64,000 nucleotides of DNA from a virus (taxonomy: Duplodnaviria > Heunggongvirae > Uroviricota > Caudoviricetes), in the IMG/VR virus record IMGVR_UViG_3300038451_000684; one strand, given 5' to 3'. Shown one piece after another: positions 6,318 to 63,016 of the stretch. Both the position numbers and the translations under genes were made by a program. The notes below the pieces were generated by a model. It made no database searches. It was not told the origin of the DNA and saw only the letters and a list, made by a program, of their open reading frames with translations. Position 1 is the first letter of the stretch, and the number at the start of each line of letters is the position of its first letter.

Positions 6318-6412
6318 CTTCGGAAAACAGGGGTTAGGGATCAGGGGGTAGGGATTAGTTCATAGATAGGTTGTATCTATAAAAAACTAACCCCTAATCC
6401 CTAGCCCCTGAC
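6318..6412. repeat. ~95-bp imperfect palindrome built from telomere-like TTAGGG(G)/CCCTAA units
   Basis: Left arm is acaggggttagggatcagggggtagggattagtt and right arm is aactaacccctaatccctagcccctgacccctgt, around an inner atagata/tatctat palindrome. The core is shared with the 53876..53950 element. Confidence 0.7.
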
Positions 6413-6419
6413 CCCTGTC

Positions 6420-6704
6420 TCACCCCCTCTTGCTGGTTGCGATCTTGCTCTTACCCTTTTTGCCTTTGCCCTTTTTGCCCTTGCCCTTCGGGCCGCAACT
6501 TGCAAGGTGCATGGAGGCAATCCGTAGCGCCGAGGCGTGATCTGGAGCGACAAAGGTTTTGCTCATGTAGCCCTTGTCAGGACCGCCGTCGCTGCTGGTA
6601 TGAATAACGAAGCCATTCTCCGCGCTATCGATCGAGGTTGTAATCCGGCCTGAACCGCCGCTTGTGCTCGGGGCTTCCTGCTGCGCTTTTTTCTTCGCCA
6701 TCAC
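6420..6704 (-). CDS. small lysine-rich basic protein (histone-H1-like tail KGKGKKGKGKKGK)
   Basis: 94-aa ORF, first of four tandem K/R-rich small ORFs. Confidence 0.5.
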   Translation of the reverse strand: MMAKKKAQQEAPSTSGGSGRITTSIDSAENGFVIHTSSDGGPDKGYMSKTFVAPDHASALRIASMHLASCGPKGKGKKGKGKKGKSKIATSKRG

Positions 6705-6986
6705 TTACCTCTTTCCCGTGGCCCGCTTGCGGCCACCCTTTTTCTTCGCTGTGGCCTTTTTCTGTCCGCTGGCGGCGGTGCCGGCCAACTTGCCCTTAGC
6801 CTTGCGCTTTGTTTTGTCTTTTTCTGCTGCCTCGCGAAAACTCTCGTTGGCCTTCCTCACCATCTCGTCATGCCATGAAGTGTCAACTTTGCGATGAGGC
6901 GTGGGGATGGCCATCAGGGTGTTCTCGAACGTATCTGCAACCCGATGCGCCGAATCGACAAGTCCACTTACTGCATCCCTGGACAT
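6705..6986 (-). CDS. small lysine-rich basic protein (C-term KKKGGRKRATGKR)
   Basis: 93-aa ORF. Its C-terminal KKKGGRKRAxxKR is shared with the next paralogue. Confidence 0.5.
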   Translation of the reverse strand: MSRDAVSGLVDSAHRVADTFENTLMAIPTPHRKVDTSWHDEMVRKANESFREAAEKDKTKRKAKGKLAGTAASGQKKATAKKKGGRKRATGKR

Positions 6987-6989
6987 TTC

Positions 6990-7265
6990 TCACCTCTTCG
7001 ATACTGCCCGCTTGCGACCGCCTTTTTTCTTTGCGGCGGCTTTCTTCAAATTTCCATGCTTGGCCTTGCCTTGAAAACGCAATGCCAGCCGACCACGCGC
7101 GGCGATCTTCTTGCTTGGCGATTTTGCTTCCGCCTTCGCCTCTGCCGTCACGGAGCGACGATGTTTCTTGGCCGCGTTTTTCACTGCGCCGGGGTGCGAC
7201 ACGGCTTTCTGAATCCACTTTCCGCCCGTGGATTCCCGGTTCGATGAATCAATTTCGTTTGCCAT
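6990..7265 (-). CDS. small lysine-rich basic protein (C-term KKKGGRKRAVSKR)
   Basis: 91-aa ORF, paralogue of 6705..6986. Confidence 0.5.
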   Translation of the reverse strand: MANEIDSSNRESTGGKWIQKAVSHPGAVKNAAKKHRRSVTAEAKAEAKSPSKKIAARGRLALRFQGKAKHGNLKKAAAKKKGGRKRAVSKR

Positions 7266-7287
7266 AAATCTCTCCTGCTTACTGCGC

Positions 7288-7482
7288 TCATTGCTTCGTA
7301 ATCAGCTTTTTCCGGTGCGTGCTCTTTCCTTTTTTGCCCTTGCGCGGCCCGATCCGGCCTTCTTTTCGCAGATAACTCAAAAGGATTGCCTTTGCCTGCT
7401 TCTTGTTGCGCACAATTTTTCCGCCCCGGCCGGAATGGAGTTTGTGCTTACGGAAGTCTTCCATTACTTCGGATGCCGGCAT
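7288..7482 (-). CDS. small basic protein (64 aa)
   Basis: ATG at 7480-7482 with GGAGGAGG RBS. K/R-rich. Lies directly downstream of element copy 2. Confidence 0.5.
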   Translation of the reverse strand: MPASEVMEDFRKHKLHSGRGGKIVRNKKQAKAILLSYLRKEGRIGPRKGKKGKSTHRKKLITKQ

Positions 7483-7508
7483 CGCCCCTCCTCCATGGCT
7501 CAGAAACA

Positions 7509-7582
7509 GAAATGGCTCAAGCCATTTCCGGCTTGAGCCATTGCTTGTTCGCCGCAGGGCGGAGCATGCTGCTCGACGAGAT
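7509..7582 (-). promoter_or_regulatory. conserved late-gene 5'UTR hairpin element, copy 2
   Basis: AAATGGCTCAAGCC/GGCTTGAGCCATT hairpin plus conserved flank, 27 nt upstream of the ATG of 7288..7482. Confidence 0.6.
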
Positions 7583-7710
7583 ATTTCAGCTTACAGTTTA
7601 CCGCAAAACTCACCGCACGCATGTTGCGCGGCTGGTCAGGATTCCCACCTGACGGGGGGCATGGTCGATAGGATCACCCCGCGTTGCTCAGGGCACAGCC
7701 GCGCAAGCTC

Positions 7711-8256
7711 TTACAGCTTCGCCTTCGTCAGGCCAAGGCCGGTCGCAAGATCGTTCCACTGCGACTTATACGCGCCCACCTTCGACTGCATGAAGTGCGG
7801 ATCTTTCAGCGGCACTACACCGCGATGTTGGTTAGCCTGAACCAGTGCCTTCACCTTGACCTTGGTCGCGCTGGTCTTGACGAACGTGGTCAAGATTACC
7901 TCGATGGCCGAAACCAGCAAGTCGATCAGCGTCGAATATGCTGACGTGACCGGAATGACCGCCAGAACCGCTTCCAGGGTGTCCAGAGCGCTCACGACGA
8001 TTGTTACAGCGGTAGACCCATTCCAGGACGATTCGGTGTTCTCCAGCGCGGTAATGGCGTCGCTGAGCGTGATGTACCAGCTATCGGTCGAGGAACCCAA
8101 CGCCAGGATTTTTTCGGCCGATTCCAGTACCGTATTCAAATAGCTCTTCAAGGTCGATGTGCTGATCGTGCAGCCTTCCATCGAGAGCAGCGCCGGAGCC
8201 GCCACCAGCGCGGCGCCGCCAAGTCCCGAAGTCTTCAAAAAGTTTCTGCGATTCAT
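7711..8256 (-). CDS. secreted protein with twin-arginine (Tat) signal peptide
   Basis: N-terminus MNRRNFLKTSGLGGAALVAAPALL matches the RRxFLK Tat motif. 181 aa. Confidence 0.5.
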   Translation of the reverse strand: MNRRNFLKTSGLGGAALVAAPALLSMEGCTISTSTLKSYLNTVLESAEKILALGSSTDSWYITLSDAITALENTESSWNGSTAVTIVVSALDTLEAVLAVIPVTSAYSTLIDLLVSAIEVILTTFVKTSATKVKVKALVQANQHRGVVPLKDPHFMQSKVGAYKSQWNDLATGLGLTKAKL

Positions 8257-8459
8257 AGTGTCCTTTCGTGTTGCGGTTCCGGAGCGCCCTGCGGAAATGG
8301 TGGTGGACCGGGTTGAGGTTGAGAATCCGGTGGGGGAAAAGGCGGAGGAAACGGTTGCGGACCAGGGCCGGGAGCGGGTGGAAGTGGTGGCTCCGGACCA
8401 GCGTTTACAATATCCCCCGCATCTTCAAGCACATGTCCAATCTTGCTGAAAATACTCAT
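8253..8459 (-). CDS. proline-rich small protein (68 aa)
   Basis: ORF with a PPxP-rich tail. Weak call. Confidence 0.3.
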   Translation of the reverse strand: MSIFSKIGHVLEDAGDIVNAGPEPPLPPAPGPGPQPFPPPFPPPDSQPQPGPPPFPQGAPEPQHERTL

Positions 8460-8473
8460 GTGTTAGCTCCTTA

Positions 8474-8938
8474 TCAGTTGACTTGCGTAAAGACCGCCAG
8501 GGAAATCAAAAGACTATCCTCTGGTGTAAACCAGTTGACGACTCTGGGATCAAGCGGGTGAAGCAGCCCGAAAGCCGCCAAGCCCTCCACCCACAATTTG
8601 CTGCAAATCCACTTGTTTGGATCATCCCAATTCCGGTCCAGCGCAATAGCGGCGATATTCAGAAAGTCATACTGCTTGCCGATTTGCGCATGGAGCCACT
8701 TCATGCCGTTATTCAACTGCTCTTCGGAGACTTCCGCCTGAAAGCGCCACTCCGCCTGAAATTTGGCGTAGTTGATCGGCCGTATCTGCACTCCGCCCAT
8801 GGCTCGCGCTCCGATGGTCTGCGTCCAGTCGTCAACGCAGAATTCGACATGCGTGGCCTGTCCCCGGCTGACAAATTTGATGGCTTCGCCGATCGGGTCG
8901 TTATCCGCCACCACGCGCCATTGAACGAAATAGCTCAT
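8474..8938 (-). CDS. hypothetical protein; possible permuted papain-fold (NlpC/P60-like) hydrolase
   Basis: 154 aa. Conserved His (ATHVEFC) precedes Cys (WICSKLW), the order seen in permuted NlpC/P60 enzymes. Assignment is tentative. Confidence 0.4.
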   Translation of the reverse strand: MSYFVQWRVVADNDPIGEAIKFVSRGQATHVEFCVDDWTQTIGARAMGGVQIRPINYAKFQAEWRFQAEVSEEQLNNGMKWLHAQIGKQYDFLNIAAIALDRNWDDPNKWICSKLWVEGLAAFGLLHPLDPRVVNWFTPEDSLLISLAVFTQVN

Positions 8939-9690: not shown

Positions 9691-9911
9691 TCCTTTCCTG
9701 CTTTCTCCGGTACTTCTTCGATTCTGTACTGGTGGCGTTTGCCGTCGCCCATCACGGCCATCATGTCTGAAAACGCATTTTCCAGAGTGCTCCAGCTACT
9801 GCTCTCGGCAAAGATTTCATACTTGTCATCGATCTCCACCGCCACCTGGAACTGTTTCTCCGAAATGGTCCAAACAAACCGTTTTGCCGGTCGCCCGTTC
9901 AGATTCATCAT
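9687..9911 (-). CDS. hypothetical protein (74 aa)
   Basis: Small ORF overlapping the upstream gene stop by 4 nt. Confidence 0.35.
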   Translation of the reverse strand: MMNLNGRPAKRFVWTISEKQFQVAVEIDDKYEIFAESSSWSTLENAFSDMMAVMGDGKRHQYRIEEVPEKAGKE

Positions 9912-10643: not shown

Positions 10644-13600
10644 TTAATATCCGCAACGATAATGAACGGTGTACGCCGTACTTGCTGCCGGTGCTGAGAA
10701 CGCATAGCGAGTGAATCCAGTGCTGTTTTCTAGCGTGTAGCCAACTGTGGATACCGCCGCCGCCGTGTGAACCTCGGCTGAACAGTTTGGATAAGTCGTT
10801 TGTGCCGATCCGTAGAGCACCACTGTAGCTGCCGTGCCAGTTGTTGTACCTGTTCCGGTCGTAAGCGTCAGATCGCCGCTATTGGTTGTGCAAGTGTGGT
10901 TCGTTTCGCAAACGCATGTTGCTCCCGTGCCTGCCGCCGCGCCAGGGGTGCAAGAGAAATTTGTGGATACACCTACATAATTTGGGACTGCGCCAAGACT
11001 GGTTAAGCTCGAATTTACTATGGTGGAATTCAGCGTTGTGCCTGCTAGTGTACTTGCCGATGGTGTGGGAACATTGAGGACGCCGCCGGACAATGATGCT
11101 GCCCCGGAACCGGTTGTGGTGAGGGACTGAAACGGCACCAAGGATGTTGAAAATGAACCTTGGAAGGAAGGCGCATATTCCCATGGCGCGGCAGTGGCTG
11201 TCGAGTTGACCGCTGTTCCCGCTGTCACGGTGGATATGAAAGCGGCGCCATCGTTCAGAAAAATCATTTTAAGAACACCAGTTTCAGCGGAAGAGGCGCT
11301 CATATTCACAATTGAAAAAGTCCACGTTGTTCCGCTGCCACTCGTTGCTGCTGTCAAATAGAGCGTCTGCGTTGAACTGCTGCCGTTGTTGGAAGCGATC
11401 TGCTCTATATATATGCCATCCGTAGAATATCCGGTGATGGTATAAATATTTGCTGTGCGAAGTGCATCGCTTGAAGTAAGAATGGCAATTGCGCTAATAG
11501 CTTGTGCCGGGTCTCCGGTGGTTGGGGCCGTCACGGTAATCACCTGAGAATTTGTACCCGAGCTTACAGCCAAAGAGTATTTGATCAGAAAATCTTGTTC
11601 ATAGGCAACTGTACCCAAATAAGTGGGTGCCCCTGTGATGATGGGGTTGCTTATCGTCGGAGATGTAGCCAGCACTGCCGCGCCGGAACCGGTCGTGTTC
11701 GATATCTGCGAAGTGTTGATCTGTCCGCTGCTGTTGCCGAGCGGGATTCCCGCCCAGGTTCCCGGCGTGCCTCCCGCCACGTTAACCCAGGCGGCGATGC
11801 CATTCACAGACGCGCCGGAGTTCTGCTCCATGTCTCCCTGCGACCAGGTGAGCGTCGTGGGTGCGACAGAGGACTTCGTCGGGAACTGCATCTCCGGGCC
11901 AAACGTCGGGGTAAAGAAAGTCAGCGCCGTTGCGGTGGAATAGGTTGAGCCGAGGGTGCTTTGCAGGTTTACAGTCACCGCGCTGGAATTCGTGGCATCA
12001 ATGTAAGAAATACTTTTGTTTGTATCTGTCCCGATGCTGATTCTTTGCCCAGCCGACAGGTCGGTAGCGCTGCTGCAAGTGAGCACATAAGTCCCGCTTG
12101 TGCCGGTGCAGGTTGTATTTCCGCTGTTAAGGGTACCAGTTGTTCCAGATTGATAAACCACGTCGATGGCATATCGGTTGCCATTCACGCCCTTCCAGTA
12201 GGTTGGCGGAGCAATAATCTGGCCTGGTAGCAAGGTCGTTCCGTTTGGCAGTGCGCCAAAGGCGGTATCCGAATACAAAAATGCGGAAGCCTGAACAGCG
12301 TTCTGATACAACTGACCGATGTTCACGTCGCCCAGCAAACTCAAGACTGCTTTCGAGGAGCCAGCGCGTATGCCCATGCTCCACGATGGCGAGTAGGAAA
12401 GAAAAGGCAACGAACCGGCAGATCCCATTGTATTGATCCGGGACAATGCGGGAATACCGACAAAAGGAGCGCTGCCTCCCATCAAACTATTGACTACGGT
12501 AATCTCAAGAGCTGCGTCGTTGGCAGGAGAAACGACAATTGACGGATAAGTCGTCACGGTTCCTCCATGCTGGTTCCAAACAGTATTGAAATTGAAAAAA
12601 GCCTGAGACGTACTTGTGTTGTTCGGGTTATTGAGCAACGTGACCATACCTATACCGGATTGCAGATTCGTGTTGCTCTCGAACTTGATATCGTGCATGT
12701 CGAGATAAATGTCTCCCGTGCGACCGGTGGCGTCCACCATAATTACCCCGCCGCTGCCGCTGGTGCATGAGGAGCAACTGTTATCGACTGTGCCAACACC
12801 CATCTCTAAATCATCGAAAGCATTAAGCCGCCAGTACACGCACGATGTTTCGACAGAATCGCACCGCCAGCCTCCGCCCATATTTGTATTGATACCGCCG
12901 CCGGAGAAATAATAGCCAAAATACTGTGCGTCCTGCATCCATGTGTTATACAGCCGAGTTCCTGTGTCTACCCGAGACCCATAATATATGTTGATTCCAA
13001 GTGCGGAAGCGCTTGTTACCGTTGGCCCCTGAACCAGTATGTTTGTAAACGATTCTTGATAGCGTGCTGCAGAGTCAGTCGCAATTGCAACGTTAATCGT
13101 TGTAGCCGTGCAGGTATCGGTATAGGTGCCATTCGATACAAGTGGTTCACCAGTAGCAATCGTAAATTGCGAGGAAGAGGCTGAGGTAACCTCACCCATT
13201 GCATAATTCATGCCCAGTGACGAAGTGCTTGTGCAACCGGTAATAATCGCCCAATTATGCACGGAAAATGAGTTAGTGCCCGTGAAGGTGGCAAGGTGCG
13301 ATGGGGCGACACTCGCTATCGGCGAACTCGGGGTGGTTATATAAGCTGAATTGCTGGCTACAACAAAACCAGTGGTGGCCGAGGTCGCTCCCGCAGCCGC
13401 GCCGTTCCATTTGATTTCTGGCGGAGCTTGGCCACCTGTATAGGTTTCGATTACGCCTTCAGTGGCGCATCCATCATATACGTTGATCGTGGAACTGATG
13501 ACATATGTTTTTGCGCCAGGAAACTCAACAACCCCACCGCGAGGGGCAACTCCGTTGTTGTAGCACGCCGCATACGCTGCTTGGATGCCGCTTGTATCGT

Positions 13601-15968: not shown

Positions 15969-15986
15969 CTCTGCACCTTCCTGTTC

Positions 15987-16044
15987 CCTAACCCCTAATC
16001 CCTGTCACCTAACCCCTAACCCCTAATCCCTGTCTCTATCCCCA
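15987..16044. repeat. C-rich (+) / G-rich (mRNA strand) telomere-like repeat island (CCCTAA/CCCCTAA)n
   Basis: Sequence ctaacccctaatccctgtcacctaacccctaacccctaatccctgtc lies between 16036..17046 and 15591..15968. Confidence 0.6.
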
Positions 16045-17051: not shown

Positions 17052-17101
17052 CACCCCTGACCCCTGACCCCTTCTCTTACCAAAACGCCTCCTGCGAGTT
17101 A
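17052..17101 (-). terminator. G-rich tract (GGGGTCAGGGGTCAGGGGTGG on mRNA strand) plus rho-independent terminator hairpin
   Basis: Minus-strand hairpin GACGCCUCUUGCG..CGCAGGAGGCGU is followed by UUUUGG, downstream of the 3' end of 17146..17712. Confidence 0.45.
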
Positions 17102-17145
17102 CCCCGCAAGAGGCGTCTGGTTTGTCTTCGGGGGAAAGACCTCGT

Positions 17146-18612: not shown

Positions 18613-18715
18613 CGTCCTTCTCCTTGAAACTAGCTGCCAGCTAACAGCCAGCAGCTAACAGTTCGAAAATCCTGATTTTGCAGGCAACGAATAGCTGATC
18701 GCTGCCTGCTGGCCT

Positions 18716-19948
18716 TTAGACCGAGAATCCAAAAGCATAGTTGTTGTGGCGCGGCTGCACGTTGTACAGGTTCGTGCCCAGCCGCATAAACAGAGCATCG
18801 ATGCTCACGTTATTCGGCATTGGCGCACGGCGCAGACCAAAGTTCCAGCCCTTCTTGTTGGTCGGGCGAATCTTGAAGCTTTCCGGCTCCAGGAAGTAAA
18901 TCACTTCGCTGGGCTGAATCGTGGTGACCGAAGGCAAACCGGAACCGGTCGGCGATACAAGGACGTTCGCGCCGTTCTTGGTGAACTGCGGAGTCGTGAA
19001 CGACACCGTTGTGGTGCTCGATCCAACGCCGTCCTGAAGGTTCGTATTGCCGGCTGCGCCGTTCGCCGGAGCCAGTTCGATGTAGTTCTGAGCCTGGGCT
19101 GAAGGCGCCAGCGGATCGGCATAAATGTCGACGCCGTTGAAGTTCAGGCCATCCCACTTGATGTCGTGCTTGGTGTTCGAAATGTCGCGGCGCTGCGCAT
19201 CGAGCGCGACGGCGATGGCTCTGAACCCGAAAACGTTGGTGATGCCCAGCGTCGGATTGCCGCCTGCGACCTTGATTGTCGACCACAACTGCATCAGGGC
19301 GGCAAAGTCGATCTGGCCGGGTGCTCCAGCCGATGTTCCCAGATATTGCGGCGTCGTGTTCAGCGCCGTGCCGATGTTGCCATTGCGCGCTTGTCCGCCG
19401 TAATTCGTGTAGATGTTGCCGTAGACGGAGGGATCGATGCCGTTGTTCAAGGCTTCGTCCATGCCGTTGATGGTCTTGATGCGATTGTCGAGAACAGTTG
19501 TCGAGGAAGGCTGGCCATGCCGGAAGGAATCCATCTCCTGCATGGTGTTCATGGTCATTACCATGGCTTCCATGTAGAGCTGGTACTCGTCGACAATCTT
19601 TGACGGACCGGAGTTAATCACACCGCCCGTGCCGGAGCCGTCATCCATTTCCCAGTCGTCCAGCGGATACCAGGTGGCATACGCCTTGGGCAGGAACTTG
19701 ATGCCGGTGTTGATCTGTTGGCGGGTCACGGTGACCGTCTGGCCGGGATTCACTGCGGCGCCTTGCGTGCGCCCGTAGAGAATGCCTTCCATCATGCCGG
19801 CGCCGCCGAGGAATTCATCCCACACACCAGCCCTGCGGAGCTTGGCCTGAAACGGCGTATCCACAAACAGGTTGTTGAAGACTACATTTTTGCGGACGCT
19901 TTCCAGGTTCGACGCATCGATTTCGTTATAGAGAGGATCGGTTGGCAC
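18716..19948 (-). CDS. putative major capsid protein (410 aa, GTG start at 19946-19948)
   Basis: Size and position (after scaffold-like gene, before decoration proteins) fit a major capsid protein. Preceded by element copy 3. No diagnostic motif verified. Confidence 0.5.
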   Translation of the reverse strand: MPTDPLYNEIDASNLESVRKNVVFNNLFVDTPFQAKLRRAGVWDEFLGGAGMMEGILYGRTQGAAVNPGQTVTVTRQQINTGIKFLPKAYATWYPLDDWEMDDGSGTGGVINSGPSKIVDEYQLYMEAMVMTMNTMQEMDSFRHGQPSSTTVLDNRIKTINGMDEALNNGIDPSVYGNIYTNYGGQARNGNIGTALNTTPQYLGTSAGAPGQIDFAALMQLWSTIKVAGGNPTLGITNVFGFRAIAVALDAQRRDISNTKHDIKWDGLNFNGVDIYADPLAPSAQAQNYIELAPANGAAGNTNLQDGVGSSTTTVSFTTPQFTKNGANVLVSPTGSGLPSVTTIQPSEVIYFLEPESFKIRPTNKKGWNFGLRRAPMPNNVSIDALFMRLGTNLYNVQPRHNNYAFGFSV

Positions 19949-19977
19949 TGGACACCTTCTTGAGAATGAAATAGAAA

Positions 19978-20050
19978 TGGCTCAAGCCATCTCTGGTCTT
20001 GAGCCATTGCTGATTCCCTGAAGGGGGGCATGCGTCTCGATTGATTTTTC
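19978..20050 (-). promoter_or_regulatory. conserved late-gene 5'UTR hairpin element, copy 3
   Basis: Same consensus as the other copies. Lies upstream of the capsid gene RBS AAGGTG. Confidence 0.6.
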
Positions 20051-25632: not shown

Positions 25633-27792
25633 TTACCAATCCAGTCGACCAACCGAGACCATATTCACCGAGCACACAGACTTATTCAGCGGTGGTGTTC
25701 GATCCGCCGGCAACGTGTAACGCTTTTGCGCTTGAGAACGATCAGCCAAGATATCGAAGTCGTGCGCGGTAAAGTAAGATTGCGCCGCCGCACGCACGCG
25801 GTCATCATGCTGGCCGCTGCGGTGCTCCAGCTTGGAAACACGGCCTGCGGCTTCATGCCGTTCCAGCGTCTTCAGCTCTTCGATCAGCCATTTGGATGCC
25901 GGCCGATACCAGCCGCCGTTCACAGCTTCCGTAAAGCGCGTCATCAGCATCGGCACGCTCCACACATTGGAGTACCAACCCTGCTTTTTGGTGGAGTTGT
26001 CCTTGATCTTCTTACTGTCGTAGCGCCGTGGAATGTGATGCCAATGGAAGCCCATCAGCTTGAGCTGGTGCTGGCATGTATCGCCCGGCCTCCCGATCTG
26101 CTCTACGCAGAACTTCACGCCGCGCGCATCGCGCGCATTTTCTCCATACCAGGCGGCCATACAAGCTGCGAAGCCCACAATCTGCGCGGAATTGATGCGG
26201 TTCGATGTCAGCTCGGCCACTTGGTAGTCAAACTCATCGCCAAACCTGTTTCGTGTCATCGACACGACGGTCCGGTCTTCATCCTCGCCGCCCAAGCCAT
26301 CGGCCGTATCGATTCCGCAACTATAGCTGGTGCCGGGCGTGGGCGCTTCATAGACCAGCAGTTTGTCGAACGAATCAGGTTCCTTGTCTTCGTCAATTGG
26401 CAAAAGAGGAACCAGAACCCAGTCGTATTGCTGGCCCCGATCAGACTCCCAACTTACGCGAATACGTGGTTTCTCGTCGTCGACGAATGCTTCGTTGGGT
26501 TCAAAGCCATCGTCAATCGAGTCACCCGTAATGGCATACACCTGTACTTCTTTCTTTCTTTCCCGCGTGTCTCCATGCAGTTCATAAACGTTGTTTTCAA
26601 TTTCCTGCATGGTTTCCGCGTCGAAGACGCTGTCATGCAAGCCGGTCAACGCTTCAAAGTCATCGGCGGCCATCTGCGCCAGCCAGATTTTCTGTGTATG
26701 GTTCTTGCAGGCTTGCAGATAGTTGAACTCCCAGAACCACTGCTGCTCGACAGGCATTGTCCAACGCGTGCCAACCACCTTGGACAGATATGGAGTGTTG
26801 CGGATGTAGAGTTCGCAGCGCAAAACATGCTTGCGCGTAATCTCCTGCCGTTTGCTCATAAAGTCTTCAGGAACGGGGAATTTCCGTATCCAATCGGCTT
26901 CTGGATAAAGATCGGTCGCCATCGGCCAGGGAATGAAGATAGGGCACAACCGGGAAAGGCCCTTCGGCCAATCTTCCTTGGCGCTGCGCCAAGTGTTTGC
27001 CAGCCAGCCAGTATTGCCGCCACCAGTCCCTTCAAAAACCAGAAACAGGTTTTTTGAAGAGTGCGTAGCGCGCAACAGACCTTCTTCAATCACCTTTTCC
27101 GGCTTGGGAATATCGGCAATTTCCGACACATGGATACAGGTCGGAGTCCACCCCTGAGCAATGCCGGTGGCCTGCATGCCAGACTGGATGGAAAGCACGG
27201 AACCGTTCTCAAAAGCCCCCTTCGGCATTCTGCGCGGCACCAGCCACCACGGGCAGCGGTTGTAGGCAATGTCAAGAATGCGCCCGATCAGTTCGGACTT
27301 ATCCGACTGCACGGACGCCATCACAGCCTGCGTATGGGGAATGAACAAGAGGCGGTGAAGGAACTTCAACGCGGTCTTGGTCGTGATGCCAACCTGCCGG
27401 GCCTTGATCACCAGGATTTCAATTGCCACTTGCAGTTCGTCGAAGCCGGCAATCACAGAATCGAAGATTTCCTGCGATCTACGATTTTGGAACTTGAAGA
27501 TTTCGCCTTTTTCGTTGCAGACATAGGCGTAGCGGCTCTCGAAGTAGCCGGCATCGAGGCCGCACATCGCCTGTTCATTCTCGATCCAGCGCCAAATTTC
27601 CTGACGGCGTTTTTGGGTAATCGGCCGCATCAGGGTGACATAGGAACTGCGAGAGTTTGATTCAATTTTGGTTAGCGAGTCGACGTAATGCTTGAATTCT
27701 TCTATTTGATCGAACGTATGAGGAGCGGGCATCCACCCCTCACGCGCGGCAAATTCGTCCAGGTTCCGAAGAATGATCTTCTCGGAATACAT
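25633..27792 (-). CDS. terL: terminase large subunit (719 aa)
   Basis: Size, position upstream of portal, and an ATPase-like segment VIKARQVGITTKTA. The antisense 443-aa + ORF is rejected. Confidence 0.6.
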   Translation of the reverse strand: MYSEKIILRNLDEFAAREGWMPAPHTFDQIEEFKHYVDSLTKIESNSRSSYVTLMRPITQKRRQEIWRWIENEQAMCGLDAGYFESRYAYVCNEKGEIFKFQNRRSQEIFDSVIAGFDELQVAIEILVIKARQVGITTKTALKFLHRLLFIPHTQAVMASVQSDKSELIGRILDIAYNRCPWWLVPRRMPKGAFENGSVLSIQSGMQATGIAQGWTPTCIHVSEIADIPKPEKVIEEGLLRATHSSKNLFLVFEGTGGGNTGWLANTWRSAKEDWPKGLSRLCPIFIPWPMATDLYPEADWIRKFPVPEDFMSKRQEITRKHVLRCELYIRNTPYLSKVVGTRWTMPVEQQWFWEFNYLQACKNHTQKIWLAQMAADDFEALTGLHDSVFDAETMQEIENNVYELHGDTRERKKEVQVYAITGDSIDDGFEPNEAFVDDEKPRIRVSWESDRGQQYDWVLVPLLPIDEDKEPDSFDKLLVYEAPTPGTSYSCGIDTADGLGGEDEDRTVVSMTRNRFGDEFDYQVAELTSNRINSAQIVGFAACMAAWYGENARDARGVKFCVEQIGRPGDTCQHQLKLMGFHWHHIPRRYDSKKIKDNSTKKQGWYSNVWSVPMLMTRFTEAVNGGWYRPASKWLIEELKTLERHEAAGRVSKLEHRSGQHDDRVRAAAQSYFTAHDFDILADRSQAQKRYTLPADRTPPLNKSVCSVNMVSVGRLDW

Positions 27793-46326: not shown

Positions 46327-46595
46327 CAACTTCTTACATACGCTTTCGTATTCTCAGTGCATGGGGCCCAAAGGATGTATTCCGCTTTTCACAAGAGGGT
46401 GTGGTCCAAGTCGAAAGTTTGCTGGATGTAAAACAGGCCATTCAAAAGATTTCTGTCGTTTATCCGTTGACCTCTTTCGATGTGCTGGAACTGGAATTCA
46501 GCGCGTCCTATGCCTACTTCACATTTGCGGCAGATCCGCATGATCCCGACCAGGAATTGAACCCCAGTAAACCAATCTATGTACCAAAAGGGTGA
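46323..46595 (+). CDS. hypothetical protein (90 aa)
   Basis: ORF only. Confidence 0.4.
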   Translation: MTTSYIRFRILSAWGPKDVFRFSQEGVVQVESLLDVKQAIQKISVVYPLTSFDVLELEFSASYAYFTFAADPHDPDQELNPSKPIYVPKG

Positions 46596-46602
46596 ATCAG
46601 TA

Positions 46603-47286
46603 ATGACCGATGTTTTTGCATATCTGCGCGTCTCCGGCCCCAGCCAGCTTCGCGGTGACGGCTTCCGGCGGCAGTTCATCGCCATTCGGAAATACTGCGT
46701 CGCGAACCAGTTGCATATCGTCCGCATCTTCAAAGAGCGCGGCATCTGCGGCGCAACGGAACTTGAGAACCGACCGGCGCTTTCCGAACTTTTCAATGCG
46801 CTTGAATCAGACGGCGTCAAGGCGGTGGTGATTGAGCGGCTGGACCGGCTGGCGCGCGATCTCATGGTGCAGGAAACCATCATCGCCGATATGCAGAAAT
46901 CGGGTTATGTGCTGCATTCCAGCTGTGAGCCCGATCTTTGTTCGATAGATCCCAGCCGCGTGCTGGTGCGGCAAATCTTCGGCGCAATCGCGCAGTATGA
47001 GAAGTGCATGATCGTACTCAAGCTGCGCGGCGCCCGGCAACGCAAGAAGGCCCGTGGTGAGCGGGGAGAGGGCCGCCACGCTTACGGAGAGAAGCCCGGC
47101 GAGGAAGTGACCTTGCAGCGGATTCTTGCTCTTCAATCCACCGGCCATTCAACGCGCGCCATTGCCAATTTTCTCAATACGGCGGGCGACGCCACACGCA
47201 TGGGCGGCACCTGGAAGCCCGGCACGGTAGCCAAAATTCTGGCGCGCGACTCAACAAAAGAAAAGATTCACCACGCTTGCGCGTAA
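46603..47286 (+). CDS. small serine recombinase (resolvase/invertase family, 227 aa)
   Basis: N-terminus MTDVFAYLRVSGPSQ carries the catalytic Ser motif. C-terminal HTH GHSTRAIANFL. Ends 60 bp before CRISPR array 1. Confidence 0.75.
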   Translation: MTDVFAYLRVSGPSQLRGDGFRRQFIAIRKYCVANQLHIVRIFKERGICGATELENRPALSELFNALESDGVKAVVIERLDRLARDLMVQETIIADMQKSGYVLHSSCEPDLCSIDPSRVLVRQIFGAIAQYEKCMIVLKLRGARQRKKARGERGEGRHAYGEKPGEEVTLQRILALQSTGHSTRAIANFLNTAGDATRMGGTWKPGTVAKILARDSTKEKIHHACA

Positions 47287-47345
47287 ATTGCGCATTTTGA
47301 CGATTGGTTCGCGGCCGGCAATTGGCAAACGAGAGGCTGCCACGG

Positions 47346-48383
47346 GTTGCATCAACAGATGTACTGAAAATTCCTTGCTACCATATTGATGATTCTTTGG
47401 AGCTCGTGCGTACAGTTGCATCGAACAGATGCACTTAAAATTCCTTGCTACCTCTCCTTGGAAGCGCTGCTTGGGCTGCATTGCGTTGCATCGAACAGAT
47501 GCACTGAAAGTTCCTTGCGACGCCATTTCGCAAGCAACGATATGAAAGGCCAGCTGTTGCATCGAACTGATGCACTGAAAATTCGTTGCTACCGCCAAAT
47601 TACTCTGGGACGACACTGCAAAATTTGGTTGCATCAAACAGATGCACTGAAAGTTCCTTGCTACGCTGATAGCTCTTGGATATTGCAACGGAATCAAAGT
47701 TGCATCAAACAGATGCACTGAAAGTTCCTTGCTACTGTCTTTCTGCGGAACGGGCCTAGCTAGGAAAAGAGTTGCATCAAACAGATGCACTGAAAGTTCC
47801 TTGCTACGGAACGGGATAAAGGCCGGCGGCGGGCGTCTCGATGTTGCATCAAACAGATGCACTGAAAGTTCCTTGCTACACCTTACATGCTTACCGCAGA
47901 CTGCACATGGTTGGGTTGCATCAAACAGATGCACTGAAAGTTCCTTGCTACGAAATTTCCCTTGACGTAATAGGTGAACCCTGATTGTTGCATCAAACAG
48001 ATGCACTGAAAGTTCCTTGCTACCCCAAGTTCCTTCTGATGGCGCGTGCAATGCAACAGGTTGCATCAAACAGATGCACTGAAAGTTCCTTGCTACATTG
48101 TGGCAGGGGACTACAAGTGTCAACCTTGGTGTTGCATCAAACAGATGCACTGAAAGTTCCTTGCTACTACGAGCCGGGCGACGTGGTGCGCTATGCGAAG
48201 AAGTTGCATCAAACAGATGCACTGAAAGTTCCTTGCTACGTCCCGCAACGCGCAACGGTCAGGCGATTGACATGTTGCATCAAACAGATGCACTGAAAGT
48301 TCCTTGCTACATGTCATCTGGAACTGCGTTTGTCGGCCAGTCACGGTTGCATCAAACAGATGCACTGAAAGTTCCTTGCTACC
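47346..48383 (-). CRISPR. CRISPR array 1: 15 repeats of 37 bp, 14 unique spacers of 33-36 bp, no adjacent cas gene
   Basis: Repeat, read on + strand, is GTTGCATCAAACAGATGCACTGAAAGTTCCTTGCTAC. Eleven repeats are identical and the four at the 47346 end are degenerate (one has a 1-nt deletion). The AT-richer leader-like sequence at 48384-48560 therefore implies minus-strand transcription. Confidence 0.85.
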
Positions 48384-51558: not shown

Positions 51559-52476
51559 TCATGCTGTCAGCCTCTTATAAGTCAAACGCTGCCCGTCAAC
51601 CGCGGAAATGAACGAGTCCAGCCGGTCCAAGGTGTGATTGGCCACGTTACCAGCATTCAGCCGGAAGGTGACTTCATTGACGTATCGAGCAACGTGCTTG
51701 GCGCTGATGTGATGCCAAGTGCCGTAGACGCCGCGTTTCAGGAGTGCCCACACAGACTCGATACCATTGGTGTGGACTTCGCCCCGGCTGTACTCGCCAG
51801 CGCCGTGATTCACGGTCGCATGGCTGTAGAACAGTCCATCCATGCCCTGATAGCCGCTGGCCTCATCCGTCATGACTTTGGAGCCAATCTCGACGTTATC
51901 CAGGACTGCGCCTTGAAGAGCCTCTTTATCGGTGTTCTCAACTGGAAACGCAATCGTCCGACCACCGCGCTCCCTGAGTCCCACAACGGCGGTCTTGCCA
52001 ACAGCGCCCCGGCCCATGTGGAGTTTCTTCGACTCGTGTTTGTTGGCTTCCTTGCCGCCTACAAAGCACTCATCCACTTCAATCAGGCCGGACAGTTTAT
52101 CCATCTTTCCGGCGCAAGCCTCACGCAGCCGCTGCAACATAAACCAGGCCGTCTTCTGAGTCACGCCGATCTCTTTAGCGAGTTGCATCGAACTGATTCC
52201 CTTCCGCGCCGTGACTACGAGGTACATGGCATAAACCCACTTGTGGAGCGGTACATGCGACCGCTCAAAAATTGTGCCGGTGCGGACCGTGAAAGTAGTT
52301 TCGCAGCGGTTGCAACGGTAAAAGTCACCCTTGCGGTTGGTGATGCGCTCACGGCCCGCGCATGTCGGGCACGTAACGCCATCGGGCCAAAGTCTAGATT
52401 CCAGATAGAGCCTTGCGGTTTCCGCATCTGGGATCAGGTTGAACAACTCGAACGTGCTGATTGTACTCTTGCTCAT
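51559..52476 (-). CDS. IS1595-family (ISXO2-like) DDE transposase (305 aa)
   Basis: N-terminal zinc finger CPTCAG...CNRC. Core IEVDECFVGG...HATVNHGAGEYSRGEVHTNGIESVWALLKRG...HISAKHV is typical of DDE_Tnp_IS1595. Confidence 0.75.
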   Translation of the reverse strand: MSKSTISTFELFNLIPDAETARLYLESRLWPDGVTCPTCAGRERITNRKGDFYRCNRCETTFTVRTGTIFERSHVPLHKWVYAMYLVVTARKGISSMQLAKEIGVTQKTAWFMLQRLREACAGKMDKLSGLIEVDECFVGGKEANKHESKKLHMGRGAVGKTAVVGLRERGGRTIAFPVENTDKEALQGAVLDNVEIGSKVMTDEASGYQGMDGLFYSHATVNHGAGEYSRGEVHTNGIESVWALLKRGVYGTWHHISAKHVARYVNEVTFRLNAGNVANHTLDRLDSFISAVDGQRLTYKRLTA

Positions 52477-52542: not shown

Positions 52543-52923
52543 CTACTCCTCTACGGCCGCTCCTTGATTCGTTTCGGCTTCATCTTCCGGCCATGCCGGT
52601 CCCAGCGGATGATCGCCACAAACCGGCGTCAACGGCGCGTGTTTCTTGCCCTTCCCGAGCACTGGCAACCCAGGCGCGCTCAGACTATGCGCATAGAACT
52701 CGCAAAGCATGGTCCACATTACCTTGCGTCGCTTGCCGCATTCCGCGCAGGGAACCGCTTGGTTAAAGCGCAGAAACCGGACGGCGACCCGTGCTTCTTC
52801 CGTGAACATAGGATTCGGTTTGGCTTCCAGAATCTGGACGACCAGGATCTCGCGCTTTTTGGCTAATCCCTTACCCCTAGTCCCTAACCCCTGTTTTTTC
52901 ACAGCCAGACCTCCACGATGCAC
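52543..52923 (-). CDS. hypothetical Cys-containing protein (start uncertain, probably ~52809)
   Basis: The N-terminal 38 codons of the track ORF are encoded by the CCCTAA repeat island and are probably 5'UTR. The stop overlaps (ATGA) the start of the split membrane-protein gene. Confidence 0.35.
   Translation of the reverse strand: MHRGGLAVKKQGLGTRGKGLAKKREILVVQILEAKPNPMFTEEARVAVRFLRFNQAVPCAECGKRRKVMWTMLCEFYAHSLSAPGLPVLGKGKKHAPLTPVCGDHPLGPAWPEDEAETNQGAAVEE
52863..52893. repeat. telomere-like C-rich island ctaatcccttacccctagtccctaacccctg
   Basis: Same CCCTAA/CCCCTA unit family as the 6318, 15987, 17052, 53876 and 62970 sites. Confidence 0.55.
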
Positions 52924-53265: not shown

Positions 53266-53866
53266 GTTGCATCGAACAGATGCACTGAAAATTCTTTGCT
53301 ACGAAAGTTTGCCACCGAGGTCGTAATCAGTGCGATGAGTTGCATCAAACTGATGCACTTAAAATTCGTTGCTACAGCGTCGATTCCCGCAGCAAATGGA
53401 TTCGATCATGTTGCATCGAACAGATGCACTGAAAGTTCCTTGCGACTCACGAACGCTTATCTTACGGACGTGATCGGACTGTTGCATCGAACAGATGCAC
53501 TTAAAATCCGTTGCTACGGATGGCTGCCAAACGCCTCGGGAATCTTGAAAAGGTTGCATCGAGCTGATGCACTGAAAATTCATTGCTACGTTGAGCACTT
53601 CTGCTGCGCGATCGGTCGGCACGCCGTTGCATCGAACTGATGCACTGAAAGTTTGTTGCTACCTTGCGGGGCCATGTATCTCTGAAGCCGCACTGCGCGT
53701 TGCATCAAACTGATGCACTGAAAATTCCTTGCTACGTTCCATGAGTCCTGATAGAAACAAGAGGCCCTTGTTGCATCGAACAGATGCACTTAAAATTCCT
53801 TGCTACCGAGGTCAAAACGGCAGCGAGTGGATGGCAGTGCGTTGCATCGAACAGATGCACTGAAAA
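53266..53866. CRISPR. CRISPR array 2: 9 degenerate copies of the same 37-bp repeat (last truncated), 8 spacers of 34-36 bp
   Basis: Repeats are GTTGCATCGAACAGATGCACTGAAAATTCTTTGCTAC and variants, each differing by 1-4 nt from the array-1 consensus. Orientation is ambiguous and no cas gene is present. Confidence 0.8.
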
Positions 53867-53875
53867 AAGCAGGAA

Positions 53876-53950
53876 ACAGGGAATAGGGATCAGGGATTAG
53901 TTTATAAATATCTATAAACTAACCCCTGATCCCTAACTCCTAATCCCTGC
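53876..53950. repeat. ~75-bp imperfect palindrome of telomere-like units with core GGGATTAGTTTATAAATATCTATAAACTAACCCCT
   Basis: Arms cagggaatagggatcagggattagtttata and tataaactaacccctgatccctaactcctaatccctg. Related to the 6318..6412 palindrome. Confidence 0.65.
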
Positions 53951-55754: not shown

Positions 55755-55757
55755 CGT

Positions 55758-59784: not shown

Positions 59785-59851
59785 TCCCTGCTCCCTGGTT
59801 GTTTTCACGCTTGCAGAGCATAAGGATGAAATTCAACAGAATGGTCTGCGG

Positions 59852-60268: not shown

Positions 60269-60678
60269 CATGTTTCCACCTTTGGTCTTGCCTTTATGCA
60301 AATACGATCCAGGAATTTTTCCTGCGCCGCCTTGCATTCCTTTACCAACTGGGCGTGGCCAGCCAGCGCCTCTTCGCGTGACCGGTAGCGCCGCTGTTCC
60401 CGGTCCAGCTTCCCGCCAAAAACCATCGTCTCCCATACCAGCGGTTTGTAAGTCAGAGGATCTGGCGCCGAACCGAAGAAAGAGAAATAGCCTTGATCAA
60501 GTCCTAAGAAAATAGTCGAAACTCTTCCCCATCTGAATCGTGTCAATGCTATCTGTCGCTGCGCCGTCTGATACCACTGTGCCCAAGTCAGCACATCGTG
60601 TTCCGGTCGGGGATTTCCTTGCTCGTCCAGAACGTACTCGCCGATCCAGTGCAGTTCCTCTTCATTTTGCTTTTCCAT
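60238..60678 (-). CDS. hypothetical protein (146 aa)
   Basis: ORF only. Confidence 0.4.
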   Translation of the reverse strand: MEKQNEEELHWIGEYVLDEQGNPRPEHDVLTWAQWYQTAQRQIALTRFRWGRVSTIFLGLDQGYFSFFGSAPDPLTYKPLVWETMVFGGKLDREQRRYRSREEALAGHAQLVKECKAAQEKFLDRICIKARPKVETWIWKKLYGRP

Positions 60679-60934
60679 CAGGATCTTCCTTCTTGCCGGC
60701 GTCCAGCTTTCCGCCTAGCTGCTTGAGATCGGGGAACAGCCCATCCATCGACGATTCCTTCTTCATCTTATGCACGGCGACTTCCAGCTTGGCGGCGTCG
60801 ATCACCTCCCTGGCAGTCATCCGTACCGCAGCGGCTCTTTTGATGTTTGTCTCCAGCGCCGTCGTGCTGCTGGTTTTGAGCGCGTCCAGAGAATCGAACA
60901 GATAATCATACAGTTCCGTTAGCGTATGCTTCAC
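60662..60934 (-). CDS. hypothetical protein (90 aa)
   Basis: ORF only. Confidence 0.35.
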   Translation of the reverse strand: MKHTLTELYDYLFDSLDALKTSSTTALETNIKRAAAVRMTAREVIDAAKLEVAVHKMKKESSMDGLFPDLKQLGGKLDAGKKEDPDGKAK

Positions 60935-61592
60935 TCGTCTCTCTCACTTTCCTTTTCAGCGCCCCGGCCAGTTGGATTACCGCTTGCAACTCCATGGGCA
61001 GGTTATGCACGCTATTGCGCTTCATCAACTCCGCGCGCGAAATCAATTCCAGATTACTGAGCCGGATATGTGTCCTGTCTCCGTCCTTGAAGGCCAAAGC
61101 AAAGCCCTTCGGCACCGGCCCGTGCTTTTCTTCCCAGAGCATCGTGTGCACGCCCTTCCAGTTCCCATAAAGGCCATTTCGTTCGCGAAACTTCACTTCA
61201 AGGTAACCATCTCTGCTAATCCGCTTCGTCCCCAAAGGCTTCCATTGTTTCCGGGCGGCTCCGGCCATCTCGCCTTTTTTGAACTGTGTTGTGGCCATTC
61301 TTCCCGGCGCCCATCCCGGCCGGCGTAGCCCCTTGTTGGCCGGCACATGCCCAGGCTTGAAGCGGCCCAGCGCACCAACCTCTGGCCGCCTCCGCAGCAA
61401 ACATGCCTCCTCGCTGGCCAGCCATTCCGCGCTCTTCTTCACGCCCAAGAGCGTAGCCCGTTGGTACACGCTCCGCACACTCCGGCCAAAGTAAAGCGCC
61501 AGATGCTCGGTCTTCGTGACGGGATACAGACGCCGAAGGACCTCATCTTCATACGGATGCCAAAATCTGCGCTTGTTCTGACCGCTGTTCAC
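60906..61592 (-). CDS. HNH homing-endonuclease-like protein (228 aa)
   Basis: C-terminal GYLEVKF...HTMLWEEKHGPVPKGFALAFKDGDRTHIRLSNLELISRAELMKRN matches the HNH_3 pattern (His, GD, N..L). Confidence 0.55.
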   Translation of the reverse strand: MNSGQNKRRFWHPYEDEVLRRLYPVTKTEHLALYFGRSVRSVYQRATLLGVKKSAEWLASEEACLLRRRPEVGALGRFKPGHVPANKGLRRPGWAPGRMATTQFKKGEMAGAARKQWKPLGTKRISRDGYLEVKFRERNGLYGNWKGVHTMLWEEKHGPVPKGFALAFKDGDRTHIRLSNLELISRAELMKRNSVHNLPMELQAVIQLAGALKRKVRETSEAYANGTV

Positions 61593-62755
61593 TGTTCACT
61601 GTCCGCTGTCTTATCCAGCCGATAGATTCCATTCCCCACGCGCTGCAGCCTGCCCGACTTGGCAAGCGCAGACAAGAGCGCATAGATTTGCTGCTTTTGG
61701 GTGTGTTCTTTTTTGGACGCAGGCAGCGCTTTGTAGACTTCAGAAATGCTCCAATTCACGCCAGAATTGGCATTAAAGAATTGAATTAGATCATCAGGAT
61801 GGCAGACGGCCGGATCATTTCTTCGTGCGCGAACAGAAGCGAAAGGTGTTCCCATTTTTCTTTCAATATGCCGATGATGATAGATCTGGTTCGCCACTAG
61901 CAATCCAGGCTTCAGATTAGCGCTTTGTTCCGCCACCAGCGCGCAAGCTGAGATGTTGTCATCCAAGACTCGCAGGTTTTCCTTTTGCTCCTCAATTCCA
62001 TATTCCGCGGCATCCAACTGCTTTCGAAGTTCCTTTTGCCGCGCTTGGTATTGTTCCAGGGTAAAGATCACGCGCTGCCGGGCGTCTCTTAGCTCATTCA
62101 CGATTGCGGTAAGGTTGGTTGCGAAAGGTGTTGGTTTTTTGAGCCATTCCAGATTGGAAGGCAAAACAACCGCAGGCTCTGTTTCAACGTCTTCGTATTC
62201 GGAGTCAATTACCGGAGTCTCTGGTGGCGCGGGTGTTTCTGGTTGAGGCTTTTCCTCAACATGGGCTTCCTTGACTATGGGAACCAGAACAGGACCGAGG
62301 TCTTCAGGTGGCTTTTCAAAAATCGGAATAGGCGTAACGGGCGTTACTTTGGCCGGGCTCTTCAATTCGATGGGGACGTTCACGATCTTCGGGGAAGCCG
62401 CTGTCTCAGGTTGCTTTGTTTCTACAACCGGGACTTGCTGTTCAGACTCCTCAACTTCCAATTCCGGTTCTGCCTCGACCGGAGGTTCAGGAACAGTCAC
62501 AGCCGAATAAGCATGAACTGAAAATGGACTTCTTTTGCTCCTGGGATCAATATAACGAGGGGCATAAACCGGTTTTGGTTTGTTCTGGCTGGGGAAACTC
62601 GCCGCAAAATTCTGTTCTTTGGTTTTCTTGGTGAGTTTTCGTCGTGTGGCTTTTACTGCGGAAAGCACTGCCTCATCGGTTTGATGTTCAAGCTGCGTGT
62701 TCACCCCACGCGTCAGGATATCCGTCAAAGCATCCTGCATCGTCGTATTACGCAT
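61589..62755 (-). CDS. hypothetical protein with P/E/V-rich central region (388 aa)
   Basis: Long ORF with a good frame. Confidence 0.5.
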   Translation of the reverse strand: MRNTTMQDALTDILTRGVNTQLEHQTDEAVLSAVKATRRKLTKKTKEQNFAASFPSQNKPKPVYAPRYIDPRSKRSPFSVHAYSAVTVPEPPVEAEPELEVEESEQQVPVVETKQPETAASPKIVNVPIELKSPAKVTPVTPIPIFEKPPEDLGPVLVPIVKEAHVEEKPQPETPAPPETPVIDSEYEDVETEPAVVLPSNLEWLKKPTPFATNLTAIVNELRDARQRVIFTLEQYQARQKELRKQLDAAEYGIEEQKENLRVLDDNISACALVAEQSANLKPGLLVANQIYHHRHIERKMGTPFASVRARRNDPAVCHPDDLIQFFNANSGVNWSISEVYKALPASKKEHTQKQQIYALLSALAKSGRLQRVGNGIYRLDKTADSEQ

Positions 62756-62934
62756 TTGCTCCCTCCATTTGATTCTCCTGCCAAAAACCTGATCCCTTGC
62801 CCTTTTAGCCTTTTTATCGGTTCAAAAAGGGTCACAACACACTGTAGAACACATAATGATCTTTGTCTAATAAATAATTGCGCTCATGCCCCTACATTAC
62901 TTTGATTAGCCAAAGTTGGCAATATCGGCAGTGG

Positions 62935-63016
62935 ACAGCGGACAGATTGAAAAGCTGTTCGCTGTCCCCTAACCCCTAATCCCTAATCCCTAACCCCTAA
63001 TTTCTAGCCCCTAACC
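62935..63016. repeat. 13-bp-stem hairpin (GGACAGCGGACAG...CTGTTCGCTGTCC) followed by (CCCTAA/CCCCTAA)n telomere-like island
   Basis: Sequence cctaacccctaatccctaatccctaacccctaatttctagcccctaacccctg lies directly after the stop of 63024..63977. Confidence 0.6.

Follow-up and report, generated by a model that had tools for sequence, protein, structure and literature searches.

Heptanucleotide repeats entered the literature in 1990 and still have no established function. Two families, STRR1 with the unit CCCCA(A/G)T and STRR3 with the unit CAACAGT, are said to have been described in that year by Mazel and colleagues in Calothrix and Nostoc. The closest parallel to the repeats treated here is provided by Rehm et al. 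(2015, PLoS One; PMC4692102), who cite the cyanobacterial STRR heptanucleotides (their reference 39). That study concerns the G-rich heptameric simple-sequence repeats (SSRs) of Xanthomonas (GGGAATC) and Nostoc PCC 7120 (GGGGA(C/T)T), which form G-quadruplexes (G4) and i-motifs in vitro, favour four units, are transcribed from both strands and vary among close relatives, and whose paired arrays are convergent only, that is, G-arm-first; no function or regulatory role was identified (PMC4692102). Here we describe six islands of G-tract heptamers in the 64,000-nucleotide (nt) stretch of the IMG/VR virus record IMGVR_UViG_3300038451_000684 (hereafter the window), a tailed-phage genome segment with a G+C content of about 54%. 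The islands are young and unstable, and on balance we favour reading them as host-type, slippage-prone heptanucleotide repeats, mostly without a dedicated role, of which paired arrays can be co-opted as hairpins. The class itself is known; new are the units, the phage carrier and the probable acidobacterial host, and a small, manipulable phage genome makes a tractable system.

The islands share with the repeats of Rehm et al. a 7-nt unit with a tract of three or four Gs, arrays in which 2 to more than 20 units stand in tandem, an intergenic location that is under-represented between divergent genes, convergent-only pairing, a potential for G4 formation, and a length and sequence that differ among close relatives with the type of site kept. 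They differ in their units (GGGGTTA, GGGATTA, GGGGTCA and GGGGCTA), in being carried by a phage (Rehm et al. saw no such repeats on Anabaena plasmids, and phages were outside their study; PMC4692102), and in that one pair forms a hairpin followed by a U-run past a stop codon, a structure that is kept with arms of another heptamer family. The intergenic TAACTGA heptamers of marine Beggiatoaceae, Cyanobacteria and Bacteroidetes (MacGregor 2015; PMC4679880) likewise form short arrays of stop-rich units at gene ends, patchily distributed over phyla without a known transfer mechanism, and their reverse complement, TCAGTTA, has the TYAG start in common with TCAGGGG and TTAGGGG. Unlike the islands, they have no G-tract and lie mostly just upstream of starts in forward orientation, and a translational role was proposed for them. 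According to Mrazek (2007), as quoted in PMC4679880 and PMC4692102, heptanucleotides are the most abundant long SSRs in many genomes, and polymerase slippage was proposed.

Units, position and turnover of the islands

A preliminary description of the window had placed six repeat sites in intergenic regions. Regular-expression searches recovered all six within a few bases, each between co-directional minus-strand genes (Table 1), and they do form one repeat family located between cistrons. Tandem Repeats Finder gave a period of 7 at every site, with higher-order periods of 14 and 21 nt. The units TTAGGGG, ATTAGGG, TCAGGGG, CTAGGGG and ACAGGGG are mixed within arrays; CCCTAACCC occurs 7 times in the window against 0.23 expected, a number reached in none of 100 shuffles. 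The likeness to a telomere repeat had been judged striking and probably coincidental. Coincidental it is, but identity with the vertebrate unit fails, because the period is 7 and tandem hexamers, CCCTAACCCTAA or TTAGGGTTAGGG, were found nowhere in the window.

The window holds nine arrays, and further ones lie beyond its end in the loci L236-L238. Most are C-rich on the plus strand; the G-rich arrays at 6326-6353 and 53875-53900 are the inverted partners in two palindromes, P1 and P2. In all four single islands the G strand is on the mRNA. The islands mostly start 0-12 nt past the stop codon of the upstream minus-strand gene, so that the location proposed earlier, in 5' untranslated regions (UTRs) or between cistrons, stands in its second part: the islands are inter-cistronic or 3'-proximal and do not lie in a classical 5'UTR. 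The array at 17054 is the exception to the stop-codon rule. It occupies the position of a ribosome-binding site, and on its other side lies an intrinsic terminator (~17080-17120, a hairpin followed by TTTTGG). Stop codons are present in all six frames of the two long arrays, in 4-5 frames of the others and in only 2 frames of the 17054 array.

The same rules of position and polarity were found in a survey of 208 arrays in 190 fetched viral and genomic loci, in which host chromosomes were sampled as 8-kb loci picked for containing a match. Nearly all arrays (198 of 208) lie outside open reading frames (ORFs), and convergent gene pairs around arrays outnumber divergent ones by 38 to 17. The nearer ORF is on the 5' side of the G strand for 81 single arrays versus 48 (p = 0.005), and for 46 versus 16 when the distance is 10 nt or less. 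Between tandem genes, G-sense arrays adjoin the upstream stop in 23 cases versus 5, and C-sense arrays adjoin the downstream start in 16 versus 9. Among short tandem repeats in the fetched genome loci, period 7 is the commonest (279 of 879 arrays).

Comparison with relatives shows how quickly the islands change: between close relatives they come and go, and their length shifts by multiples of 7 nt. Where the genes for a 336-amino-acid (aa) and a 125-aa protein meet, seven relatives have 7-8 nt (...GGATGGGGAGATTAAcATG), whereas the window has 67 nt and L003 has 75 nt. Both of these longer junctions are filled with heptamers, in arrays that are non-identical although the flanking proteins are about 90% identical; the arrays begin within the native TGGGG, contribute a TAG stop and run into a common new ribosome-binding site, CAGGAAGGTGC. 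Ahead of the 448-aa gene relatives show TGA, 3 nt and ATG; at this place the window has an insertion of about 105 bp bearing P1. Past the 317-aa gene, in an intergenic region that is about 96% identical between the window and L238/L239, the array counts seven units in the window versus two in these relatives, a difference of 35 nt, or 5 x 7. Between the terminator and the 336-aa gene, the window and L003 have GGG-type units, L002 has AAACAGC GAACAGC TCACAGC, and more distant relatives have the ribosome-binding site only. The four-unit array at 52863-52895 is identical in L240. Of the 79 terminase-family loci, most carry no arrays of this kind. These gains, losses and length steps between near-identical relatives mean that the repeats arise quickly. 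A lack of conservation in related phages, together with an absence of G4 formation in vitro, had been put forward as a sign of neutral low-complexity sequence; conservation is indeed poor, but the islands are members of a described heptanucleotide class that obeys rules and are not random low-complexity sequence.

A second heptamer family, of the ACAGYGN or CAGC type, had been overlooked. In addition to its sites in the window (Table 1), it is seen in the relatives L002 (~12100-12200), L240 (3553-3672) and L238 (2740-3425). It coexists with the GGG-type units and substitutes for them at orthologous sites in relatives, and YAG stands at the same heptad position in both families. This second family presumably resembles the cyanobacterial STRR3, taking the STRR units as they are reported. 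As in the STRR repeats, for which function is equally unsolved, several heptamer families occur in one genome. On the same reported units, the correspondence extends to the pairing of a family with a tract of four Gs or Cs and a family containing ACAGT, represented here by the GGG-type units in the window and the ACAGTG/ACAGC-type units in L240, L238 and L002. The exact units differ, however, and the setting is non-cyanobacterial, with a probable host among the Acidobacteriota.

The palindromes P1 and P2

Two of the islands are hairpin-forming palindromes, as had been described. The arms of P1 (6327-6360 and 6385-6418) are 34 nt long and 79% complementary, those of P2 (53869-53909 and 53910-53950) 41 nt long and 80% complementary, and the sense-strand RNA folds with -61.5 kcal/mol for P1 (z -5.6) and -58.9 kcal/mol for P2 (z -9.6) relative to shuffles. 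The core said to be shared by the two was approximately right; what their centres actually have in common is TTAGTT.ATA...TATCTATAAA...ACTAA.

P2 lies 12 nt past the stop of a 186-aa gene, and its hairpin is followed by U6. The layout of an intrinsic terminator, a G+C-rich stem-loop with an immediate U-run downstream of a gene, is found at P2 and at its orthologue in L240; P1 has only U4, and the single arrays have no hairpin or U-run. The L240 orthologue keeps the centre TTTATAGAT...ATCTATAAA, the tail CTGCTTTTTT and a hairpin of -44.9 kcal/mol, with arms made of ACAGTGA, ACAGTGG and ACAGCCG heptamers in place of the GGG-type units; the 7-nt register and the invariant AG are conserved between the two. 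Among P1, P2 and the L240 hairpin, three sequences only, 7 of 34 consensus pairs are altered on both sides yet still paired. Since L240 keeps hairpin, centre and U-run with arms from another heptamer family, the hairpin at the P2 site is most likely maintained, as an intrinsic terminator or a 3'-end stabiliser with a heptamer stem. Orthologous hairpins with arms from two heptamer families suggest that paired arrays can be maintained as structures. P2 resembles Rho-independent terminators in its G+C-rich stem-loop followed by a U-run past a gene; it is unlike typical ones, whose stems measure 5-15 bp, in its imperfect stem of about 40 bp, built of 7-nt units with slippery alternative registers.

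The centre of P1, ATAGATAGGTTGTATCTATAAAAAACTA, is homologous to that of the L240 hairpin, 47 kb apart in map position, which argues that P1 is a diverged second copy, one that a single event of copying or transfer would have brought to the former 3-nt junction. When folded, P1 may hold the upstream stop near the downstream start, and the insertion may have been tolerated for that reason. Two metagenome contigs of about 2 kb, Ga0187858_10092905 (L252) and Ga0187866_1042561 (L260), have P1 and flanks identical to those of the window; the same or a near-identical phage was therefore present in those samples. The minus-strand ORF upstream of P1 (6420-6704) has a lysine/glycine-rich tail, GKGKKGKGKKGKSK, at 6445-6488, originating from a 15-nt tandem repeat, and this basic tail of the product is kept in relatives.

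In the survey, all inverted pairs, P1 included, are G-arm-first (27 of 27), and P2 has the same architecture by inspection. The centres of these pairs measure 6-84 bp and are mutually unrelated; some hold a terminator hairpin of their own.

Table 1. Positions of heptamer arrays, palindromes and selected genes in the window (arrays as located by regular expression; aa, length of the encoded protein)
Feature	Position	Strand	Context
Small hairpin CTGTTTTCC-TTCG-GGAAAACAG	6310-6330	minus	Directly before ATG (6309) of the 448-aa gene; within the ~105-bp P1-bearing insertion
P1 G-rich arm (AACAGGGG TTAGGGA TCAGGGG GTAGGG)	6326-6353	plus	Four G-tracts
P1 A/T-rich centre	6354-6390	.	Own 10-nt inverted repeat TTCATAGATA / TATCTATAAA
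P1 second arm, C-rich on plus, G-rich on sense strand	6391-6419	minus	Directly past TGA (6420-6422) of the 94-aa basic-protein ORF; island end 6419, upstream stop 6420
Heptamer array, two blocks, C-rich on plus	15986-16034	minus	Between stop of the 336-aa gene (16036) and start of the 125-aa gene (15968); island end 16034, upstream stop 16036
Three GGGGTCA units, C-rich on plus	17054-17074	minus	Between terminator and ATG (17046) of the 336-aa gene
CAGC/GCTG-type heptamers as an inverted pair (second family)	18631-18719	.	Gap after the head-protein-like gene
Head-protein-like gene (weak major-head match)	18716-19948		
Large-terminase-like protein	25633-27792	minus	
IS1595-family transposase	51559-52476	minus	
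Four-unit array, C-rich on plus	52863-52895	minus	3 nt past stop; island end 52895, upstream stop 52899
P2, 82-bp hairpin then CUGCUUUUUU on sense strand	53862-53950	minus	Adjoins truncated CRISPR repeat; island end 53950, upstream stop 53962 (186-aa gene)
P2 array, G-rich on plus	53875-53900		Inverted partner of the next
P2 array, C-rich on plus	53919-53950		
Tandem GACAGCG GACAGTG AACAGTG AACAGCG (second family)	61580-61615	minus	Junction of 388-aa and HNH genes
Hairpin ACAGCGAACAGC...CTGTCCGCTGT (second family)	62925-62962	minus	Adjoins the 62966-63019 array
Array of 7-8 units, C-rich on plus	62966-63019	minus	Starts 4 nt past stop; island end 63019, upstream stop 63024

Occurrence elsewhere and explanations for the arrays

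The exact 19-mer CCCCTAACCCCTAATCCCT is found in 18 unrelated viral contigs and in at least 120 genome contigs, about 20 of those listed being Acidobacteriota, including Terracidiphilus. Other carriers belong to the Planctomycetota, Chloroflexota, Cyanobacteria, Gemmatimonadota, Bacteroidota, Bacillota and candidate-phyla-radiation (CPR) lineages. When all proteins of the window were compared by tblastn with the viral and genomic loci that carry heptamers, no match was obtained; these loci are therefore not prophages of this phage family. The Terracidiphilus loci have the same units, including the GACAGGGATTAGGG start. The insertion sequence (IS) transposase of the window, of the IS1595 family, has 98%-identical copies in metagenomes, and every named homologue (74-77% identity) comes from metagenome-assembled genomes of Terracidiphilus. 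Because of these homologues and of the genome matches with the same units, the host lineage is probably among Terriglobales-type (Terracidiphilus-like, soil) Acidobacteriota. A cyanobacterial host, raised by the STRR-like units and a peptide deformylase, was dropped on the same two lines of evidence. No terminal inverted repeats were detected in an inverted-repeat search around the transposase, and the island at 52.9 kb is therefore not an IS end.

How could such arrays be generated and kept? We hold, with moderate confidence, that they are host-type, slippage-prone repeats mostly without a dedicated role. Arrays would arise via replication slippage or unequal exchange from seeds in G-rich gene-end sequence, for example the native TGGGGA with which the 336-aa gene ends, and would survive only intergenically, since they put stop codons into most reading frames. 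Their orientation would be sorted by selection on expression. G-rich RNA just past a stop would be harmless; costly would be G-rich, Shine-Dalgarno-like or G4-prone RNA at a start codon or ribosome-binding site, and C-rich, Rho-loading RNA just past a stop. Such a tolerance rule at the RNA level would yield a polarity of the DNA that is independent of gene orientation, and, orientation being sorted in this way, most single arrays would need no dedicated job. Inverted pairs would form hairpins open to co-option, as at P2. Chi-like recombination hotspot arrays had been considered on account of the same orientation-independent polarity, and were set aside as RNA-level tolerance gives that polarity too; in addition, Chi sites are not known to form intergenic tandem arrays.

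Several points weigh against this explanation. A few same units recur over more than 10 phyla, in genomes of 38-71% G+C, so that slippage alone is insufficient; the recurrence is a hint of some common constraint (G4 formation, a binding factor) or of horizontal spread. The host, which the term host-type supposes, is probable and identified by indirect signs. P1 is not derivable by slippage at a 3-nt junction, where a copy or transfer is needed. As to co-option, a simple terminator scan flagged neither P1 nor P2, because its loop limit is 8 nt, and revealed instead a separate conserved hairpin family, a ~70-nt element; the phage thus seems to have terminator hairpins of its own. A T-run past the 3' arm is present in only 7 of the 27 inverted pairs elsewhere, and single arrays in other genomes show no excess of T-runs; terminator function is therefore not general, and we do not claim it for the class. 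The ORF calls of the survey were crude, the longest ORF being taken. Lastly, the strict G-arm-first rule may reflect a mechanism instead of selection.

The arrays could instead be selected G-quadruplex/i-motif switches past stops or before starts, an explanation that we find unlikely, as we do the tuning of transcription, translation coupling or mRNA decay of adjoining phage genes that it entails. It had been expected that the islands would supply four or more tracts of at least three Gs. With loops of up to 7 nt this is true of 4 of the 9 arrays, those at 6330-6353, 6391-6415, 52868-52891 and 62966-62990 fitting four repeats of G3+N1-7, but not of the other 5. The G strand is on the mRNA in all four single islands, and the sister repeats form both structures in vitro with a preference for four units, but Rehm et al. 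saw no regulatory role (PMC4692102), and in genomes the C strand is equally often sense. In P1 and P2, the hairpins (-59 to -61 kcal/mol) would compete with G4. Moreover, orthologous sites in relatives use ACAGTG/ACAGC units, which are incapable of G4 formation, and most relatives are without the arrays. Over the whole window, canonical G4 motifs number 4, no excess over the 3.2 in shuffles, and at a G4Hunter threshold of 1.5 the shuffles contain more regions than the real sequence. It is plausible that some arrays form G4, which would not be their defining property; a regulatory role for it, as previously suggested, finds no support in arrays that are gained, lost and resized between close relatives.

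In a further alternative, the arrays would be something other than passive products of slippage: modular stem-building units, either produced in a polar process guided by a template or retained through a factor that reads YAG-N4 heptads. From a hairpin or the end of a gene, the arms would extend symmetrically outward by complementary 7-nt units, the G arm always 5'. We consider the proposal distinctly unlikely. If it were true, phage and host would gain fast-evolving terminators or insulators, whose arms swap heptamer family with the hairpin kept.

The strict 7-nt register, and an invariant YAG although the rest of the unit changes between families, would also suit a periodic binding array for a nucleic-acid-binding protein of host or phage (for example S1, Csp, a CsrA-like protein or a G-tract binder). 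The occurrence of the same units in many phyla and the ribosome-binding-site position of the 17054 array are consistent with this, and protein binding was proposed by MacGregor (2015) for the TAACTGA repeats of Beggiatoaceae (PMC4679880). No candidate protein was identified in the window, however, both orientations relative to genes occur in genomes, the arrays are dispensable in close relatives, and the number of units ranges without constraint from 2 to more than 15. We therefore regard such an array as very doubtful, and so too a bound protein that would set translation or mRNA fate.

P1 is a clean insertion of about 105 bp at a junction that is intact in relatives, its centre has a homologue in the L240 orthologue of P2, 47 kb off, and its architecture is that of inverted arms around a spacer. 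P1 and P2 might accordingly be copies of a small non-autonomous mobile element, of the MITE (miniature inverted-repeat transposable element) or REPIN kind, with the heptamer arms as terminal inverted repeats and moved by a host transposase. The likeness to REPIN, REP (repetitive extragenic palindromic) or MITE sequences lies in intergenic inverted doublets that fold to hairpins, and in P1 resembling a recent insertion; a dispersed family of near-identical copies, a RAYT or a cognate transposase was not seen in the window, and the centres are unrelated between genomes. Only two diverged copies are present in 64 kb, and the P1 insertion shows no target-site duplication. The core, GGGATTAGTT N5-30 AACTAACCCC, gave three unrelated matches without heptamers in 2.9 million IMG/VR contigs, and a metagenome scan for the centre gave 38 matches, namely 36 unrelated sequences rich in A/T and, twice, the P1 locus itself (L252 and L260). 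As the centres of the 27 inverted pairs elsewhere are mutually unrelated, the arms accrete around pre-existing sequence and do not travel with it. The sole transposase of the window, the unrelated one of the IS1595 family, lies 390 nt away behind another ORF and has no detectable inverted ends. A mobile element is thus improbable in our view, and little is left of the earlier suggestion that the islands are remnants of a miniature mobile repeat. Telomere-related sites (protelomerase or telomere-resolution sites, or telomerase-like additions, of a linear phage replicon) can be dismissed almost outright, since a superficial TTAGGG(G) likeness and two long palindromes face a 7-nt unit with no tandem hexamer, units heterogeneous within arrays, six internal sites that each adjoin gene ends, the same arrays inside ordinary bacterial chromosomes, and no protelomerase, for which a search had been advised, or reverse transcriptase among the ~50 window ORFs scanned against Pfam and PHROGs. 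In annotation, such islands should be labelled neither telomeres nor mobile elements.

Setting in the phage segment

Gene direction in the window is minus in 1-33 kb and 48.5-64 kb and plus in the stretch between them. Besides the proteins listed in Table 1, its products include a lysozyme, a peptide deformylase, an HNH endonuclease and the N-terminal half of a serine recombinase. A megablast search of INPHARED phages with window positions 1-25000 gave no match; the IMG/VR relatives form a large family with terminase identities of 56-99%. An Rfam scan of the window at gathering thresholds gave no family, and a tRNA and tmRNA scan of the window found none.

The serine recombinase ORF (46579-47286, 235 aa), possibly a truncated integrase, has a Resolvase domain and only the start of a Recombinase domain. 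Its end is 58 nt from the first of two CRISPR arrays (47345-48382 and 53266-53877), which have the 37-nt repeat GTTGCATCAAACAGATGCACTGAAAGTTCCTTGCTAC. Array 1 consists of 15 repeats, 11 of them identical and 4, at the left end, degenerate. Array 2 has 9 degenerate repeats, the last of which is truncated at the start of P2, and L240 has 5 degenerate repeats at the equivalent place. No cas gene was recognised among the window ORFs scanned, and the spacers had 0 matches in all fetched loci.

The conserved ~70-nt element occurs three times on the window's minus strand (4866-4898, 7511-7542 and 19973-19994), at major gene boundaries. Its layout is CATGCCCC..., a hairpin AATGGCTCAA(N)...TTGAGCCATT and then a T-rich tail, and it looks like a terminator or regulatory hairpin family of the phage itself, separate from the heptamer islands. 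Finally, homologues of the 336-aa protein, which is highly conserved, match in the relatives L013, L019, L027 and L036 in two pieces about 180-200 nt apart, which suggests an insertion (an intron or intein-like element) or a frameshift in the gene.

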